Shown piece by piece: positions 28,691-50,064 of a stretch of 64,000 nucleotides of DNA (position 1 is its first letter; the number at the start of each line of letters is the position of its first letter). The stretch is from a virus. Both the position numbers and the translations under genes were made by a program. The stretch lies in IMG/VR virus record IMGVR_UViG_3300042447_000691; one strand, 5' to 3'. Below the pieces are notes generated by a model, which saw only the letters and a program-made list of their open reading frames with translations, ran no database searches and was not told where the DNA came from.

Positions 28691-30613
28691 ATGAGAAGAA
28701 TAATAAATGAATCAGGTATCCGGGATATTAATAATATTGCTAAAAGATACAAAAAAGCAAAAATATACTTTCACCAAGATTTGGACGGTGTAACAACCGC
28801 ATTGGCGATGAAAAACTATCTTGAACAACACGGTATTGAAGTTGTCGATGCTGAAGTAATACAATACGGATCTAAAGAATTCGCCATTAAAAAACCTGAA
28901 GGTGAAGGTGACGTTATGCCGGTTCTTGTTGATTTTGCTCACGGAAAACCAATGTTTGTTATTCATACCGACCACCACGATACACAAGCTGGTGTTGAAA
29001 AAGACACGGCAACAAGTTTCAAATCATCAAGATCAAACGTGGAAACCATATCACAAGTCGTTTCACCAAAAGAGATTTTCCCATCGGATGATATAATGTT
29101 AATATCAACGATCGATTCGGCAAACTTCGCGGTAAATCAAATAACACCAGAAATGGTTATGAATTACCTATACAAATACGATAAAGATAGTTCACTAAAG
29201 AGAAATAAAATGTTAATGGGGTTAGTTGTAAATAAACTATTATTAGCATATAAAAACAAACCAAGATTTTTGGAAAACCTTGTGTTAAACTCACAACCAT
29301 CCCTTTTAAGTATTTTAAATAATATTAAAAAAGAAGCGGTTGAAAAGGGGTATGTCGAACCTGAACAACTAACAAAAAACAAGGAAAATTATATACAAAG
29401 TAGAAAAGAAAAGGGTGTAGAAACTCTTGGTAATATTATCTCTCAATATGGATTTGGTAGCACAACAAAGTCAGGTGCTTATGATAGATACACACCATTT
29501 AAAAACAATCCAGATTCCGATTTCCTTGTAACGGGAATGCCGATGGGTATGGTTCAAGCATCCTGCAACCCATTTAAAGAAGATAGAGCACTCAAAGGGG
29601 TAAATTTAGGTGAAATAAAAGATGAGGTATTAGATGTATTTAGAAAAGAATTTGAGGGGTTAAAAATAACCTTTGGTATTATAAAAAGGGTTGCGGAACA
29701 AGAAGCTGATTTTAGTTCAGTTGGTTTTACCTTTAAAGATATGGAGGCGATCTACGGTGAAAGCCCATCTTATAAAATAGACGGAGGAGAAAACTTAAAA
29801 GAGATTTTAAACAACATATCCTCCAAACTTTATAGGGGGTTATCTCAAAAACAAAAAGAATTATTAAATAAAGTTTCTGTTAATGGATTTGACGTTATAA
29901 GAGCAAACTCAGGAGGACACAAATGTATAACCAACATTTCAGGTATAAATTTTTTATATAGGGATAATAAAGGAGGTAAAACAGATAAAATTCCTAGTGA
30001 GTTATTACCAATCGCTAATTATTCAGGAAAAAATTCATTTTTAAACGACATTAAATCAAAATTGTTAACTTACGGTAGATTGTCAGACAAACAAATTGAG
30101 ATGGCAATGAATCAGATTAAAAAGGAAGGGGGATCACCATCACCATCACCATCAACTGAAACAGTTGCTTCACAATCAAACAAAACTTACGTAGATGTTG
30201 TAAAACAAATCCAACAGGAATTTGTGAATATTTTAAATAATAAAATAAAATCACAATCTGAAGGTATAACTGAAAGTTTTAACAAGGGAGAAAATGTGGA
30301 GTCATTATTGAAAAGTCACGTTAAAGGACAAAAAGTTCTTTCTGAACGAGAATGGAAATTTATTATGTCAAAACTTAACGCAGTTACTGATAACAGAGGA
30401 CAGTGGGATCATCCGGGTAGATGTACCATGATAGAAAGTAATAGAATAACTATGGAGAATGTTAATTTTCCTTTAGTTGGTATAGACAACACTGGTCACT
30501 TAAAATTAATGTTACCTGAAAACGATTATAAATTCCCAGGAAAAAGAGTTTTTGAAATACCATTAAAAGGTAAATATAAAAATTTAGGTATAAAATTACT
30601 AAAAACGATTTAA
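28691..30613 (+). CDS. DHH-family phosphoesterase-like protein
   Basis: HQDLDG, VDFAH, TDHH and a late GGH motif. Confidence 0.7.
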   Translation: MRRIINESGIRDINNIAKRYKKAKIYFHQDLDGVTTALAMKNYLEQHGIEVVDAEVIQYGSKEFAIKKPEGEGDVMPVLVDFAHGKPMFVIHTDHHDTQAGVEKDTATSFKSSRSNVETISQVVSPKEIFPSDDIMLISTIDSANFAVNQITPEMVMNYLYKYDKDSSLKRNKMLMGLVVNKLLLAYKNKPRFLENLVLNSQPSLLSILNNIKKEAVEKGYVEPEQLTKNKENYIQSRKEKGVETLGNIISQYGFGSTTKSGAYDRYTPFKNNPDSDFLVTGMPMGMVQASCNPFKEDRALKGVNLGEIKDEVLDVFRKEFEGLKITFGIIKRVAEQEADFSSVGFTFKDMEAIYGESPSYKIDGGENLKEILNNISSKLYRGLSQKQKELLNKVSVNGFDVIRANSGGHKCITNISGINFLYRDNKGGKTDKIPSELLPIANYSGKNSFLNDIKSKLLTYGRLSDKQIEMAMNQIKKEGGSPSPSPSTETVASQSNKTYVDVVKQIQQEFVNILNNKIKSQSEGITESFNKGENVESLLKSHVKGQKVLSEREWKFIMSKLNAVTDNRGQWDHPGRCTMIESNRITMENVNFPLVGIDNTGHLKLMLPENDYKFPGKRVFEIPLKGKYKNLGIKLLKTI

Positions 30614-30622
30614 TTTTTTTCT

Positions 30623-31060
30623 ATGAACGACCAATTGTATTATTTTAATTATAGTGGAAAAATAAAAGAATGGCCGGGAATTAAATTAATAATTAATGAA
30701 AAAAAAACACATAAAGAAATAGGACACATCTTTTTAGTTGATGTTGATACCGCATATGATTACGATAGTAAAATAGAAAACGAGATATCAAATATTGAAG
30801 ATTATAATGATTATGATTTTATAAAAGAAAATGAAACTATATTTTTACATAGTTTATTTATTGTTGAGAAATATAGGAATAATGGGTTTGGTAAAATAAT
30901 CAGAAAAAAAACAGAAGACATTGCGATTGAGTATGGATATAAGGTTTTATCGTCTATAACAAATAAAAATAATTTACATTCCAACAGAATAAATGAGGGG
31001 TTAAATTATAAAATCTTAGAAAATTTAAAAGAATATAATTTTTTTTACAAAAAACTGTGA
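30623..31060 (+). CDS. GNAT acetyltransferase
   Basis: LFIVEKYRNNGFGK motif A. Confidence 0.75.
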   Translation: MNDQLYYFNYSGKIKEWPGIKLIINEKKTHKEIGHIFLVDVDTAYDYDSKIENEISNIEDYNDYDFIKENETIFLHSLFIVEKYRNNGFGKIIRKKTEDIAIEYGYKVLSSITNKNNLHSNRINEGLNYKILENLKEYNFFYKKL

Positions 31061-31127
31061 TTTTACTAAACTAAGTTGTATTTATATATTACCTCTGACA
31101 AAATTTCTATATTTTTTATTAAATCAC

Positions 31128-31158
31128 TTGATTAAACAAAAATAAATTTATAAATTTG
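31128..31158 (+). promoter_or_regulatory. Bacteroidota-type promoter
   Basis: TTG-N20-TAAATTTG. Confidence 0.6.
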
Positions 31159-31210
31159 TAAAACAATTAGGAAACGTTCTAATTAGTATAAAAAATTGAT
31201 TTATTAATAT

Positions 31211-31354
31211 ATGTCTGAAATTACAAACGAAGTGGTTGAGATCTATGCCTACACTGACGACAAAGGTCAGAAAGTGTACACACCAAACGTAGAGTTTGCT
31301 GAGATAATGGCTAAGAAATACGGAACAAACGATGTTTACGTAGAAAAAAACTAA
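31211..31354 (+). CDS. Small hypothetical protein (47 aa)
   Basis: Not in the ORF track; clean ORF MSEITNEVVEIYAYTDDKGQ. Confidence 0.55.
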   Translation: MSEITNEVVEIYAYTDDKGQKVYTPNVEFAEIMAKKYGTNDVYVEKN

Positions 31355-31372
31355 AAAAAAACAACAAAGGAC

Positions 31373-31440
31373 TTGTCTAATTGAAAAAAAAGACTTAACT
31401 TTGTAAAACAAATCAGGAAAAGACCTGAAACGTTCTTTGA
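31373..31440 (+). promoter_or_regulatory. Bacteroidota-type promoter followed by hairpin and boxA-like GTTCTTTGA
   Basis: TTG-N20-TAACTTTG, TCAGG/CCTGA hairpin, GTTCTTTGA at 31432. Confidence 0.6.
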
Positions 31441-32340
31441 AAATCTAAATCCGACCGAAACAGTCGTCACAGTTAAAAAAAGCGAAGTAACACCTCCCTT
31501 TCTTTATATGTGAAACTAAATTAAGTCATTGGGCCGTGTATGGTCCATTAAAATAAACCACGAAAGTGGGATAAAGTGAACCCTTAGTGTGTTGGGTTTG
31601 CGTCTTGGTGAGTCTTCGGACTTGTCGAGATTGAGTACACAAGCGGGATACCGCTTAACCTTTAGTACCGAGGGCAACGCTGTAGGGAAAGTGGTTAGGT
31701 GAATTGGCAATGTGGGTTGTCAGTTTGAGATGGGAACATCGATAGGAATAACTCGTAGGGATATTGCAAAAAATAAGGTTATCCGATTTTATTATTGCGT
31801 GTTCCATTATGATAGGATACTTAAAACCGAAAGGTATGTTAGTGTACAAGTGGTGTTGTTACTAACCTTGACCGTCCCCTACCAAGGGTTCGATCTCGAA
31901 GTAGTCTTGAAATATTGAGATGGGGACATTTCACGGGGTAGTTTGGTATTTCGTTGTTCAAAAGATAACGAATCTAAAGACGGACCACTACTTCGATCAA
32001 TCCACGACACCAAACTTATGGAGCTTTAATTCCAATTAAAATTACATTAAGCAAAAGTGTTCGTCAGGTGTCAATGAAAGGTGACTACATAGTAACGAGC
32101 AGTTCGTTGCGTAGTGAGACCGCAAGTTGAACTACATTCTTACCAAAAACCTCTATTCCCGCAAGGAAGAGTTGGGACGGCAGTCTCGAAGAGAGTTGAG
32201 TAATGAGAGAGTAATTGATACCTCAAGGAGTGATTCACCTAAATAATCGTCACTGAGGAATACCATTCAAAAGATGGTGGATACGAAGGGAAACAATAAT
32301 CCTTCAAAAGGTTCTCAATAACAGGTATAATCTCAGCCTT
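31441..32340 (+). ncRNA. Large structured ncRNA, GOLLD-like candidate
   Basis: About 900 nt, GC-elevated, no credible ORF, many GNRA/UUCG hairpins (CCAC-GAAA-GTGG, GAGTC-TTCG-GACTT, TTCCC-GCAA-GGAA), own promoter and terminal U-run. Family assignment is from size and context only. Confidence 0.6.
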
Positions 32341-32437
32341 TTTTAAAAAACTACTTACTGGTAAAAAAAATTGATGGATGATAAAAAATTATTGTCCATT
32401 TTTTTGTGAGTTAAATTTTTTTGCATATCTTTGTTGT

Positions 32438-32848
32438 ATGAAAAATGATAACAAAATAGGTAAAGCGATTACGGACAAACATATTAAGATCGTTAAAAAA
32501 ATTACTAAAGATATGGTAATTAGTGCATATAAAAATTACAAATATTATGTGGATTCTGACCTATTAGATTCAGCAATTAAAATCTCATCAATTAGAAAAT
32601 ATAAACACGAAAAATCTGTGTGGTTGGATAATAAAGAACTATATACCTATGAGATAGATGTTATTGTTGATATGCGTTCTGGACGGAGTTGGAAAAATAA
32701 CAATTATTGCCAACGAAATGCAACAAGATATAATAGATATTATAGGAATAGTATTTATAATTCAGTTTTAGAATATTTAAAATATTTTGGAATTGATGAA
32801 TCAGATAACCCCACTATTTCAAAAATACAATACAAAGAAATTGTTTAA
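32438..32848 (+). CDS. Hypothetical protein
   Basis: ATG follows TATCTTTG. Confidence 0.55.
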   Translation: MKNDNKIGKAITDKHIKIVKKITKDMVISAYKNYKYYVDSDLLDSAIKISSIRKYKHEKSVWLDNKELYTYEIDVIVDMRSGRSWKNNNYCQRNATRYNRYYRNSIYNSVLEYLKYFGIDESDNPTISKIQYKEIV

Positions 32849-32871
32849 TTAAAAAAAAAGTATTACATTTG
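32841..32871 (+). promoter_or_regulatory. Bacteroidota-type promoter
   Basis: TTG-N20-TACATTTG. Confidence 0.6.
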
Positions 32872-32885
32872 TATAAATAAAAGAT

Positions 32886-33152
32886 ATGGCAACACTAAAA
32901 CACATAATGATCGTCCACCCTAAGTTTGGTGAAGTTTTAAATGAAACTTTTATGGATGAGGTACAGTTTAAAATATTTTTGAATATGGTCCACTCATCTA
33001 TTGAGTTGAATCAAAACCTATCAACGTTTAATGGTAAAGACTTTTTAGTTCACGTACCAAGTTCAATATTAAAGGAATGTTTAGTTATTGGTAATAGTAA
33101 AGAGATGTCAATAGCTGAGGTTGTTATAGCAAAATCTAAGTTGGAGGGATAG
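32886..33152 (+). CDS. Hypothetical protein
   Basis: 88-aa ORF after a promoter. Confidence 0.6.
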   Translation: MATLKHIMIVHPKFGEVLNETFMDEVQFKIFLNMVHSSIELNQNLSTFNGKDFLVHVPSSILKECLVIGNSKEMSIAEVVIAKSKLEG

Positions 33153-33219
33153 TTTCTTTGTTTCTCTTTAAAACAAAGTGGTGGCAGTTTGTATCACAAT
33201 CCGTGATCGACCCGAAATT

Positions 33220-33246
33220 AGGTGAGGTTTTCCTCACCTTTTTTTA
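33220..33246 (+). terminator. Intrinsic terminator
   Basis: AGGTGAGG/CCTCACCT stem followed by a T-tract. Confidence 0.7.
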
Positions 33247-33267
33247 TTATATGATATATTTATTAGT

Positions 33268-34629
33268 ATGGATCTAAAAAGAATTATTAGAAAGGTAATA
33301 AAAGAGGCTCACGAAAAGAGGCAAATTAACGAAGCCACATGGGTACCTAAAAATACTGGAAGTAAATATGGTATGAGACTTCACCCCGTACAGAAAGTTT
33401 ATAAACTTCATGCTGGTCAGGATTATCCTGAACCACAAGGTACTGCTATTATTGTAATTAAACCAGGTAAGGTATTAAGATCTGAATTTGGTAAAGCCAA
33501 TGGTAATTTTGTTGAAATTTTACATAATGATGGTTCGGTTACGATGTATTTACATCTATCTAAGAGAATGGTAAGTGCTGGTGACATTGTAAATAGTGGT
33601 AAAGTAATTGGGTTGGTTGGATCTACAGGTCTTTCTACGGGGCCACATCTACATTTTGTTTATAAAAAGGATGGTAAAATGATAAATCCTGAAACTTATG
33701 CTCCACAGGTATTTAGATTTAGTAATAGTTCGTCACCAGACGTTAGTGAGTTTGTTAAACCGGTTGCAAAAGGTAAAACAAAAGAATATATGGTGTATGC
33801 CATCTCAAGTGGAAAAGTGCATAACCCAACCGGTAATTATATTGGTAGTTTAGGTACATTAATATCAAAAAGAAATGGTGAACCGATATATGGATCACAA
33901 AGAAAACGAGATGGTAGAATATTTTTATTCACATTTGATAACAGTAATGATGTATTATACATTGAAATGTCTAATGAGGACTTTTTAAATTATGATGTTA
34001 AAAAACAAAGAATAGAAGGGACGTGGGAAAAATTAACGGAAACTTCTGTTGTTAGAGATTCTAAAAGTAAAAACCAAGAAAAATCTTCTGAAACAAAAAA
34101 TAAAGAAACTCAAAAATCAGGAGATTTAAAAGACGATAGACTTTCAGAACCAATTTTAAAGGCAATTAATGACTTAATAAAAAAAGGTGTTAACATTACA
34201 AAAAAAAATATAGATAAAGAATTTGAACAGGAAGGGTCAACAAGACCTGATTTGGGAAAAAATAAAATTGCAGAAAAGAAAATACTAGAACTTATAAATG
34301 ATTGTAATAAAAAATTTGGTATAAGTGGAGGGGTAGTCTCCGGATATAGAAGTTATGATGATCAAGTGAATAATTTTGCAAAAAAAGTTTTAAATAATAA
34401 AAGAACAATAGATAATGTTCAAGCATCAAACACATTACCTGGTTTTAGTCAACACCACACAGGAAAGGCGTTTGATATATATTCAACAGAAACTAGTTGG
34501 TGGGATGCGAAACCTAAGATTAAAAAATGGGTTGCGGATAACGCTAAAGATTACGGTTTTGAAATAACATATAAAACACAAGGACCATTAAGGGTTGCTG
34601 AACCTTGGCATTTAAATTATATAGGATGA
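33268..34629 (+). CDS. Dual peptidoglycan peptidase: M23 + M15B (VanY-like)
   Basis: M23 HAGQD...TMYLHL...STGPHLHF; C-terminal SGYRSY...PGFSQHHTGKAFD...AEPWH. Confidence 0.88.
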   Translation: MDLKRIIRKVIKEAHEKRQINEATWVPKNTGSKYGMRLHPVQKVYKLHAGQDYPEPQGTAIIVIKPGKVLRSEFGKANGNFVEILHNDGSVTMYLHLSKRMVSAGDIVNSGKVIGLVGSTGLSTGPHLHFVYKKDGKMINPETYAPQVFRFSNSSSPDVSEFVKPVAKGKTKEYMVYAISSGKVHNPTGNYIGSLGTLISKRNGEPIYGSQRKRDGRIFLFTFDNSNDVLYIEMSNEDFLNYDVKKQRIEGTWEKLTETSVVRDSKSKNQEKSSETKNKETQKSGDLKDDRLSEPILKAINDLIKKGVNITKKNIDKEFEQEGSTRPDLGKNKIAEKKILELINDCNKKFGISGGVVSGYRSYDDQVNNFAKKVLNNKRTIDNVQASNTLPGFSQHHTGKAFDIYSTETSWWDAKPKIKKWVADNAKDYGFEITYKTQGPLRVAEPWHLNYIG

Positions 34630-43336: not shown

Positions 43337-43366
43337 TTGTCAATTAAAAAAAAATACCTATATTTG
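43337..43366 (+). promoter_or_regulatory. Bacteroidota-type promoter upstream of tRNA array 1
   Basis: TTG-N19-TATATTTG. Confidence 0.65.
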
Positions 43367-43673: not shown

Positions 43674-43716
43674 CAAACAAAAAGAAAAAGTTCTTTGACA
43701 TATTGGCTTCATAAAA

Positions 43717-44303: not shown

Positions 44304-44392
44304 TGATGGGTGTCCCGAGATGGCCGAAGGGTCCGGCCTGTTAAGCCGATGAGAAATATTCTCCACCGTGGGTTCGAATCCCACCCCATCAG
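44304..44392 (+). tRNA. tRNA-Asn(GUU) with long variable arm
   Basis: CGGC-CTGTTAA-GCCG; extra GAGAAATATTCTC hairpin; G73. Confidence 0.8.
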
Positions 44393-44442
44393 CTGATTTT
44401 TTCCGAACTATCAGATATTTATTAATATAAAATGTTAATATT

Positions 44443-47772: not shown

Positions 47773-47810
47773 GTTCTTTGACATATTGGTAAAAAAAAGT
47801 TTAAAAAAGA

Positions 47811-47842
47811 TTTGGTAGATCAAAATAGATTACATATCTTTG
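47811..47842 (+). promoter_or_regulatory. Bacteroidota-type promoter
   Basis: TTTG-N20-TATCTTTG. Confidence 0.75.
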
Positions 47843-47987
47843 TAAAACAAATAAGGAAAAAAGGTTCTTTGAAATATTAAAAATATTGTGGTTGTAAGAA
47901 ACGGGAAACTCGTAAAGTGCATTAACCTGTTGACTCAAGATGGTGAAACGAGAGTTTGAGTCAACTACTAAACTACAAATGGTATAT

Positions 47988-48130: not shown

Positions 48131-48224
48131 ACTGACGATTATGCTGACGTACCGGTGGATGCTTATATCATCTATGCCCGTAGAGGAAGTTTTAAACGTT
48201 GGTTCGATCCCAACCGTCAGTACA
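48131..48224 (+). tRNA. Atypical tRNA-like RNA, possible Ile(UAU)
   Basis: ACTGACG/CGTCAGT acceptor, GGATG-CTTATAT-CATCT arm, canonical T-arm, odd D and variable regions. Confidence 0.45.
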
Positions 48225-48395: not shown

Positions 48396-48427
48396 TTTGG
48401 CAGATTGAAATAGATTACATATCTTTG
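48396..48427 (+). promoter_or_regulatory. Bacteroidota-type promoter
   Basis: TTTG-N20-TATCTTTG, nearly identical to 47811-47842. Confidence 0.75.
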
Positions 48428-49927: not shown

Positions 49928-49966
49928 CACTTGACATTATTAAATTAATGTCTTATTATTATACAA

Positions 49967-50039
49967 AACCGGGTAGCTCAGCTGGTAGAGCAATCCTTTT
50001 TAAACAGGACGTGTCATTGGTTCAATCCCTTTCCCGGTT
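49967..50039 (+). pseudogene. Degenerate tRNA (Lys-like)
   Basis: Good D-arm, 8-nt anticodon loop TTTTAAAC, mismatched T-stem. Confidence 0.5.
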
Positions 50040-50064
50040 TTTTTATTTATAAAATTAAAATATT

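Follow-up and report, generated by a model that had tools for sequence, protein, structure and literature searches.

GOLLD builds an RNA-only cage larger than the ribosome, as has been known since 2025, and the family itself has reportedly been known since 2009, from Weinberg et al. In rrn operons, boxA brings in NusB-S10, and the polymerase complex that results resists Rho and acts as an RNA chaperone. The rrn leader has the order boxB-boxA-boxC and involves NusA/B/E/G, SuhB and S4. Phages can also turn a host boxA to termination resistance, as in the lambda nut sites, where boxA is followed by boxB and the N protein takes part. The env-38 GOLLD is 833 nt long. Its 5′ domain has 420 nt and its 3′ domain 413 nt, an internal linker is disordered, and cryo-EM showed that the RNA forms a hollow D7 14-mer cage (Kretsch et al. 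2025; PMC12286853). This D7 14-mer assembly is known for env-38 only (PMC12286853). ROOL (RF03087) and OLE are, like GOLLD, large, ornate and self-assembling, and ROOL is also phage-borne and found near tRNAs; neither gave a sequence or model match in our Rfam scan of the window.

The window is the whole stretch of DNA that was analysed, 64,000 nt from a virus record that is itself a 109-kb fragment with a CheckV completeness of 37%. Contigs of its relatives reach 304 kb, so these are large or jumbo phages. The DNA runs in which the stretch occurs come from over a dozen studies and are metagenomes of lake water, and the source is probably a large, probably jumbo, freshwater phage infecting Bacteroidota. 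The RNA itself belongs to a known family and structurally has no feature that distinguishes it from other GOLLD RNAs. What differs from the GOLLD described in the literature searched is its setting, as an rrn-type hairpin-boxA leader and a conserved small-protein gene upstream are undescribed for the family there, and the search found no paper treating GOLLD RNA together with boxA.

Positions 31373-32344 on the + strand are almost certainly a complete GOLLD RNA gene, and a regular member of the family. In a Rfam 15 scan of the whole window, the GOLLD model RF02032 matched 31934-32339 (+) with 330 bits (E 8e-94), over model positions 1-416 of 416 and against a gathering score of 150 bits. It is the sole non-tRNA Rfam match in the window, and in the whole virus record too. 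The sequence-only reading had guessed at a GOLLD-like RNA and proposed a covariance-model search; GOLLD passes the threshold in that search, and the guess is thereby raised to family membership. Its description of the stretch also held up. The island is GC-elevated, with a G+C of 0.44 at 31450-31900 compared with 0.20-0.30 in the flanks, its + strand ORFs do not exceed 68 aa, GNRA and UUCG loops are present (for example GAGTCTTCGGACTT, CCACGAAAGTGG, CCCGCAAGG and ACCGCAAGT), and the run of U at the end is there as six T at 32339-32344. Like the rest of the family, the RNA matches the model over its full length, has two domains of about 420 and 410 nt, a linker, a pseudoknot and a conserved terminal loop, and is phage-borne, of lake origin and near tRNA genes, 18 of which lie 3.7-18 kb downstream (ARAGORN).

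The Rfam-defined 3′ domain (31934-32339, +, complete), the part that all GOLLD RNAs conserve, is the second half of the RNA only. The 5′ domain, at 31515-31933 (+), is a conserved core of about 420 nt outside the Rfam model, delimited by nhmmer, covariation and length. Counting 420 nt back from 31934 gives 31514, the point where conservation among relatives starts, and by this length the 5′ domain can be likened to that of env-38. The core totals about 825 nt and is preceded by a leader of about 105 nt. A 3′-domain pattern fetched 95 stretches from IMG/VR, and about 70 contigs carry both halves, as judged by nhmmer with the two halves of the window's RNA; in most of them the 5′-half match extends back to the first bases past the promoter. 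The 25 pattern-scan loci without the 5′ half were set aside as chance pattern matches, none of the 13 tested with Rfam being a GOLLD. Full-length loci with flanks numbered 47 (40 unique), and 41 RNAs were aligned with MAFFT, with a mean column identity of 76%.

On this alignment, RNAalifold predicted 204 pairs, 97 of which show compensatory double changes. For the leader hairpin and the 5′ domain alone there are 137 pairs in 25 helices, and 98.0% of cells form standard pairs, compared with 37-43% in slid controls with partners shifted by 1-3 columns. Double changes occur at 76 of the 137 pairs, against 12-24 in the slid controls and 44.9 +/- 2.7 in shuffles, and none of 500 shuffles equalled any of the observed covariation measures. 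About 20 helices of the 5′ domain have compensatory changes. Covariation was also the evidence on which the sequence-only reading had let its proposal stand or fall, and it is strong and far above the controls. The blastn search of a phage collection gave one partial match, LR745206.1, an uncultured phage of 634,780 bp whose positions 421109-421287 match the final 177 nt of the RNA, at 75%; on this similarity the record may hold a megaphage GOLLD.

Within the 3′ domain, a variable linker (31995-32055, +) runs from the first hairpin to the pseudoknot. In the cmscan alignment it has gaps and the lowest posterior probabilities, its length varies among homologues, and ARAGORN found no tRNA in it. 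By homology with env-38, it would be a disordered loop inside the cage (PMC12286853). In the pseudoknot, 32066-32075 with 32214-32223, every position pairs in the window's RNA, and the helix covaries among the 41 homologues (alignment columns 741-750 with 890-899), with AU in 19 and UA in 18 at one pair and CG in 22 and UA in 11 at the next. The RNA closes with a P27-like terminal hairpin and U-run at 32323-32344 (+), with stem 32323-32326 pairing with 32336-32339 and the U-run at 32339-32344. This stem covaries as well, with AU, CG and GC at one pair and both GC and CG at its neighbour. Its loop hardly varies, and most homologues continue with a U-rich run. The hairpin and U-run near 32344 are likely the 3′ end of the RNA, and the gene after GOLLD has its own promoter at 32404-32433.

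Transcription initiates, in our model, at a host-type promoter. The + strand of the window has 19 matches to the Bacteroidota consensus TTG-N17-21-TAnnTTTG and the - strand has 4, compared with about 3 in shuffles. The GOLLD promoter, TTG-N20-TAACTTTG (31373-31403, +), has its -33 TTG at 31373-31375 and its -7 TAACTTTG at 31396-31403, and an equivalent promoter is present in all homologous loci. The claim that the RNA has its own host promoter thus holds if the host belongs to the Bacteroidota. Sites from a generic sigma-70 scan were no more frequent than in shuffles, and the best of them, 32303-32331, was set aside as it lies inside the 3′ end of the RNA. From the Bacteroidota promoter, transcription would start near 31408-31412, giving a primary transcript of about 935 nt that includes a leader of about 105 nt. 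An extended promoter form, TTGT(C/T)(T/A)AATT..AAAAAAAA..TAnnTTTG with an A-tract spacer, is seen at 31373-31403, 32841-32871 and 43337-43366, and may be a phage-specific promoter class.

The leader has a fixed order after the -7 box: TAAAACAAA, a hairpin, and boxA, with 28 nt from the -7 box to boxA. The hairpin, TCAGGAAAAGACCTGA at 31413-31428 (+), sits in a boxB-like position and was recognised by scan and covariation. Its stem varies as CAGG/CCTG, TCGG/CCGA and GAGG/CCTC among the 41 unique RNAs, with AU in 15, CG in 10 and GC in 7 at one pair and GC in 30 and UA in 6 at another. The boxA, GTTCTTTGAAAA at 31432-31443 (+), was recognised by its conservation and its identity with rrn words. 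All 41 unique homologues have GTTCTT without change, and 40 of them have the whole of GTTCTTTGA, the exception, L064, having GTTCTTAAA. Promoter, hairpin and GTTCTTTGAA are found in every homologue, and the promoter-hairpin-boxA leader is also present in 7 of 7 further loci that were chosen through the small protein described below. The remainder of the leader, 31444-31514 (+), folds into two hairpins in the MFE fold (31452-31466 and 31467-31513) and varies among relatives (alignment columns 40-150).

The GOLLD leader word is, by sequence identity, the boxA of Bacteroidota rRNA operons. When the 16-mer GTTCTTTGACATATTG was sought in 185,579 species genomes, at least 120 stretches matched, nearly all from Bacteroidota. 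Among the 121 occurrences listed, 62 lie 58-236 nt 5′ of 23S, and 50 of these 62 also have a 16S 3′ end upstream, placing them in the 16S-23S spacer. The form ending in GACATATTG is thus the 23S spacer boxA. The 16S leaders of the same operons match GTTCTTTGA with at most one mismatch in 23 of 36 cases, compared with about 1 expected by chance. These matches are mostly G(T/A)TCTTTGAAA, most lie 91-185 nt 5′ of 16S, and they often follow a TAnnTTTG promoter and a hairpin. The boxA-like element named in the sequence-only reading is therefore the boxA word of Bacteroidota rrn leaders, placed 3′ of a covarying hairpin and kept in the homologues. Since the word is shared with the 16S leaders and 23S spacers of this phylum, the GOLLD leader copies the rrn layout of the host phylum, and the phage tRNA arrays copy its spacer form.

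The 9-mer GTTCTTTGA occurs four times in the window, always on the + strand and always in or just before RNA genes, with 0.3 occurrences expected. Apart from the GOLLD copy, one copy of the 23S-spacer form GTTCTTTGACAT lies inside the main tRNA array (43690-43701, +) and another copy of the spacer form lies ahead of the second tRNA sub-array (47773-47784, +); both are the exact 23S-spacer form GTTCTTTGACATATTGG. The fourth copy (47864-47875, +) has the leader form GTTCTTTGAAAT and lies 22 nt past a promoter at 47812-47842, with a leader nearly identical to that of GOLLD. This promoter and another at 48397-48427 are near-duplicates. ARAGORN also reported a tRNA at 49966-50041 whose anticodon, ttaa, has an unusual four letters, and two unusually long tRNAs, Ile-tat of 93 nt (48131-48223) and Asn-gtt of 90 nt (44304-44393), the last two of which the Rfam tRNA model did not report at threshold.

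The window has no tmRNA. Six relatives do, all on the - strand: L217 (3742-4161), L221 (3768-4154), L224 (3791-4188), L222 (4598-5004), L223 (2596-3003) and L220 (4352-4759). These tmRNA genes score 72-112 bits with Rfam and lie 112-932 nt downstream of GOLLD, on the opposite strand. In all 6 loci a TAnnTTTG promoter lies ahead of the tmRNA gene, and after it stands a boxA-type word, GTTATTTGACATA or GTTCTTTGAAAA, with no more than one mismatch. As the same boxA occurs at the tRNA arrays and at the tmRNA of relatives, GOLLD appears as part of a phage stable-RNA set, which most likely acts on the host translation apparatus.

The layout of the leader resembles that of rrn operons in several respects. 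A host-type promoter, a hairpin and a boxA fall within about 35 nt of the start, the leader precedes a long, highly structured untranslated RNA, and the spacer form of boxA is used in phage tRNA arrays. Unlike in rrn operons, the cargo is a phage RNA, and neither a boxC nor a leader-trailer helix was identified. No conserved G/U-rich block can be recognised after boxA because the alignment is variable there. RNAalifold proposed that the CUUU of boxA pairs with an AAAG close to the 3′ end, and this pairing was set aside as unsupported: it shows no covariation, as both sides are invariant, and the AAAG lies within the universal GOLLD consensus. The promoters also differ from the adjacent rrn P1/P2 pair, as the window has a single close promoter and a second one 5′ of the small ORF. 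The latter, TTG-N20-TAAATTTG (31128-31158, +), fits the Bacteroidota pattern. It may also act as an upstream, P1-like GOLLD promoter by read-through, and the scan found no terminator-like site between the small ORF and GOLLD. In L219-L224, the first 130 nt past the small ORF hold two tandem promoters ahead of boxA, each with a TAAAACAA-plus-hairpin. These tandem promoters resemble rrn P1/P2, and the window has one promoter in the same gap.

Compared with the lambda nut sites, the predicted use is the same, namely that of a host boxA by a phage for termination resistance. The order differs, being hairpin then boxA as in rrn operons, whereas lambda has boxA then boxB. The lambda elements drive mRNA operons, whereas those of the window drive stable RNAs, and no N-like protein was identified. 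We judge it rather likely that the GOLLD boxA is a functional Nus-type boxA. Against this stands that Rho may act poorly on this RNA whether or not boxA is present, since the RNA has much G, little C and a tight fold. The model also does not explain how a terminal hairpin of just 4 bp would end transcription under an antitermination complex.

The metatranscriptomes give a weak hint that GOLLD is a discrete, abundant transcript. Six metatranscriptome runs from 5 studies contain at least half of the words sampled from the stretch, and contigs of 4 RNA libraries, each from another study, were placed on 30400-33400. They cover about 31515-32321, with summed word depths of up to 4822 (X18), 912 (X19), 196 (X15) and 27 (X17), and, coming from runs selected with the stretch itself, they cannot give ends, strand, levels or gene rank. 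Cover is at or near zero on the flanks, 30400-31100 and 32420-33400, and almost absent on the leader at about 31410-31514. These gaps in cover are no proof of absence, and give only a weak hint that the first ~105 nt may be missing from the mature RNA. A low-depth RNA contig of a relative spans 31190-31579, from the small ORF into GOLLD.

Two alternatives bear on the RNA and its leader. The stretch could be a decayed or unusual protein-coding region, or belong to another RNA class (a group I/II intron, RNase P or a riboswitch array, for example), and the short ORFs that overlap it, the longest being 68 aa (+) and 87 aa (-), might be read as coding. These ORFs are short, though, conservation at the RNA level is unbroken, GOLLD alone passes the Rfam thresholds in the stretch, and the changes among the 41 homologues overwhelmingly compensate base pairs. 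The Rfam match and the covariation have in effect already refuted this alternative, to which we give practically no weight, and the full-length RF02032 match together with the covariation places the RNA in GOLLD rather than in a new class. A different proposal accepts the RNA as GOLLD and takes the conserved GTTCTTTGAAA block for something other than a Nus site: a promoter-proximal element for a phage regulator, an RNase processing signal, or a piece of the initial transcribed sequence by which promoter escape is tuned. The stretch from the -7 box through boxA is indeed conserved as a single unit, the protein-gene promoter at 31128 also has a similar TAAAACAAT-plus-hairpin after it, with no boxA, and the scant RNA contig cover of the leader is consistent with cleavage there. 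Such a block would nevertheless have to be identical by word to Bacteroidota rrn leaders and spacers and to recur at stable-RNA genes only (GOLLD, tRNA arrays, tmRNA), on the transcribed strand. It would also have to explain why a subgroup of homologues with another promoter and another, larger hairpin retains the same boxA word. We consider this proposal quite unlikely. A GOLLD gene with an rrn-type boxA leader, taken as a whole, is the best explanation of the locus and a probable one.

The second feature of the locus is a gene for a 47-aa acidic small protein at 31211-31354 (+), with same-strand homologues upstream of GOLLD. In at least 37 of the 47 loci a homologue of 38-75% identity lies on the same strand just 5′ of GOLLD; tblastn finds it in 33, and a related 51-aa ORF is present in 4 more. 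The family comprises 148 clusters of 46-60 aa, all hypothetical, and the protein gave no match in Pfam, PHROGs or PDB (Foldseek). Its model is a beta-beta-alpha-beta fold of moderate confidence (pLDDT 71), and its acidity does not suggest direct RNA binding. OLE offers a precedent for such a gene, as it has dedicated protein partners (OapA) encoded alongside; OapA is a membrane protein, whereas the candidate partner in the window is soluble and acidic. Other neighbours in the window are a small GNAT acetyltransferase (30623-31060, +), a 640-aa protein with a weak DHH match (28691-30613, +), and a Peptidase_M23 and VanY protein (33268-34629, +), likely a cell-wall hydrolase.

Gene order suggests a functional tie between the small protein and GOLLD, and we regard such a tie as possible but doubtful. 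The chance is close to even that the two genes are instead neighbours through a gene order inherited among close phages and have no functional tie. The loci all belong to a single clade of phages from lakes and estuaries, the acidic protein has no recognisable RNA-binding fold, and in 10 of the 47 loci it was not found within 600 nt upstream of GOLLD. Inherited order fits less well with the persistence of the pair while other neighbours change (none of the 47 loci has the GNAT gene, 12 have the 640-aa gene, and the downstream ORFs are present in 14, 11 and 5). The spacing is kept even where the protein is down to 38% identity, with the small ORF 43-165 nt from the GOLLD start in the loci measured, save L081 (275 nt). 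Loci fetched through two divergent small proteins point the same way. A full GOLLD (315-335 bits) is present on the same strand in 7 of 8, and the eighth is cut by a contig end, so all 7 testable loci carry it. L218, with a 39% match to the small protein, was left out of the count, as it lacks both promoter and boxA and is truncated where its contig stops.

In the model we propose, host RNA polymerase would start at the Bacteroidota -33/-7 promoter, and the first ~35 nt of the transcript would present a small hairpin and the rRNA boxA of the host phylum. This boxA would recruit NusB-S10 and other Nus factors, and the long untranslated RNA would then be made, as rRNA is, by a fast, Rho-resistant, folding-assisting polymerase. 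Near 32344, the terminal hairpin with its U-run would bring transcription to a stop. The ~105-nt leader may be cut off, leaving an RNA of about 825 nt made up of the 5′ domain (31515-31933) and the 3′ domain (31934-32339). By homology with env-38, this mature RNA would self-assemble into a hollow cage of 14 subunits, and on that analogy the window's GOLLD probably does form a cage. The 47-aa acidic protein would enter the model as the likely functional partner of GOLLD.

This locus and its roughly 50 relatives give two handles on the biogenesis and function of GOLLD. One is the leader, from which a need for NusB-S10 and the rRNA transcription machinery is predicted, and the other is the tightly linked small protein as a candidate partner. 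The covariation-backed model of the 5′ domain, which is absent from Rfam, would improve the detection and classification of GOLLD subtypes. The broadest reading is that GOLLD, the tRNA arrays and the tmRNA form one stable-RNA regulon run by the host rRNA antitermination machinery in freshwater Bacteroidota phages, and that the 47-aa protein is the first dedicated GOLLD partner. Both together are a speculative proposal that we place on the unlikely side. If it is true, the 47-aa protein would be a cofactor, a cargo, or an assembly or regulatory factor of the RNA cage.
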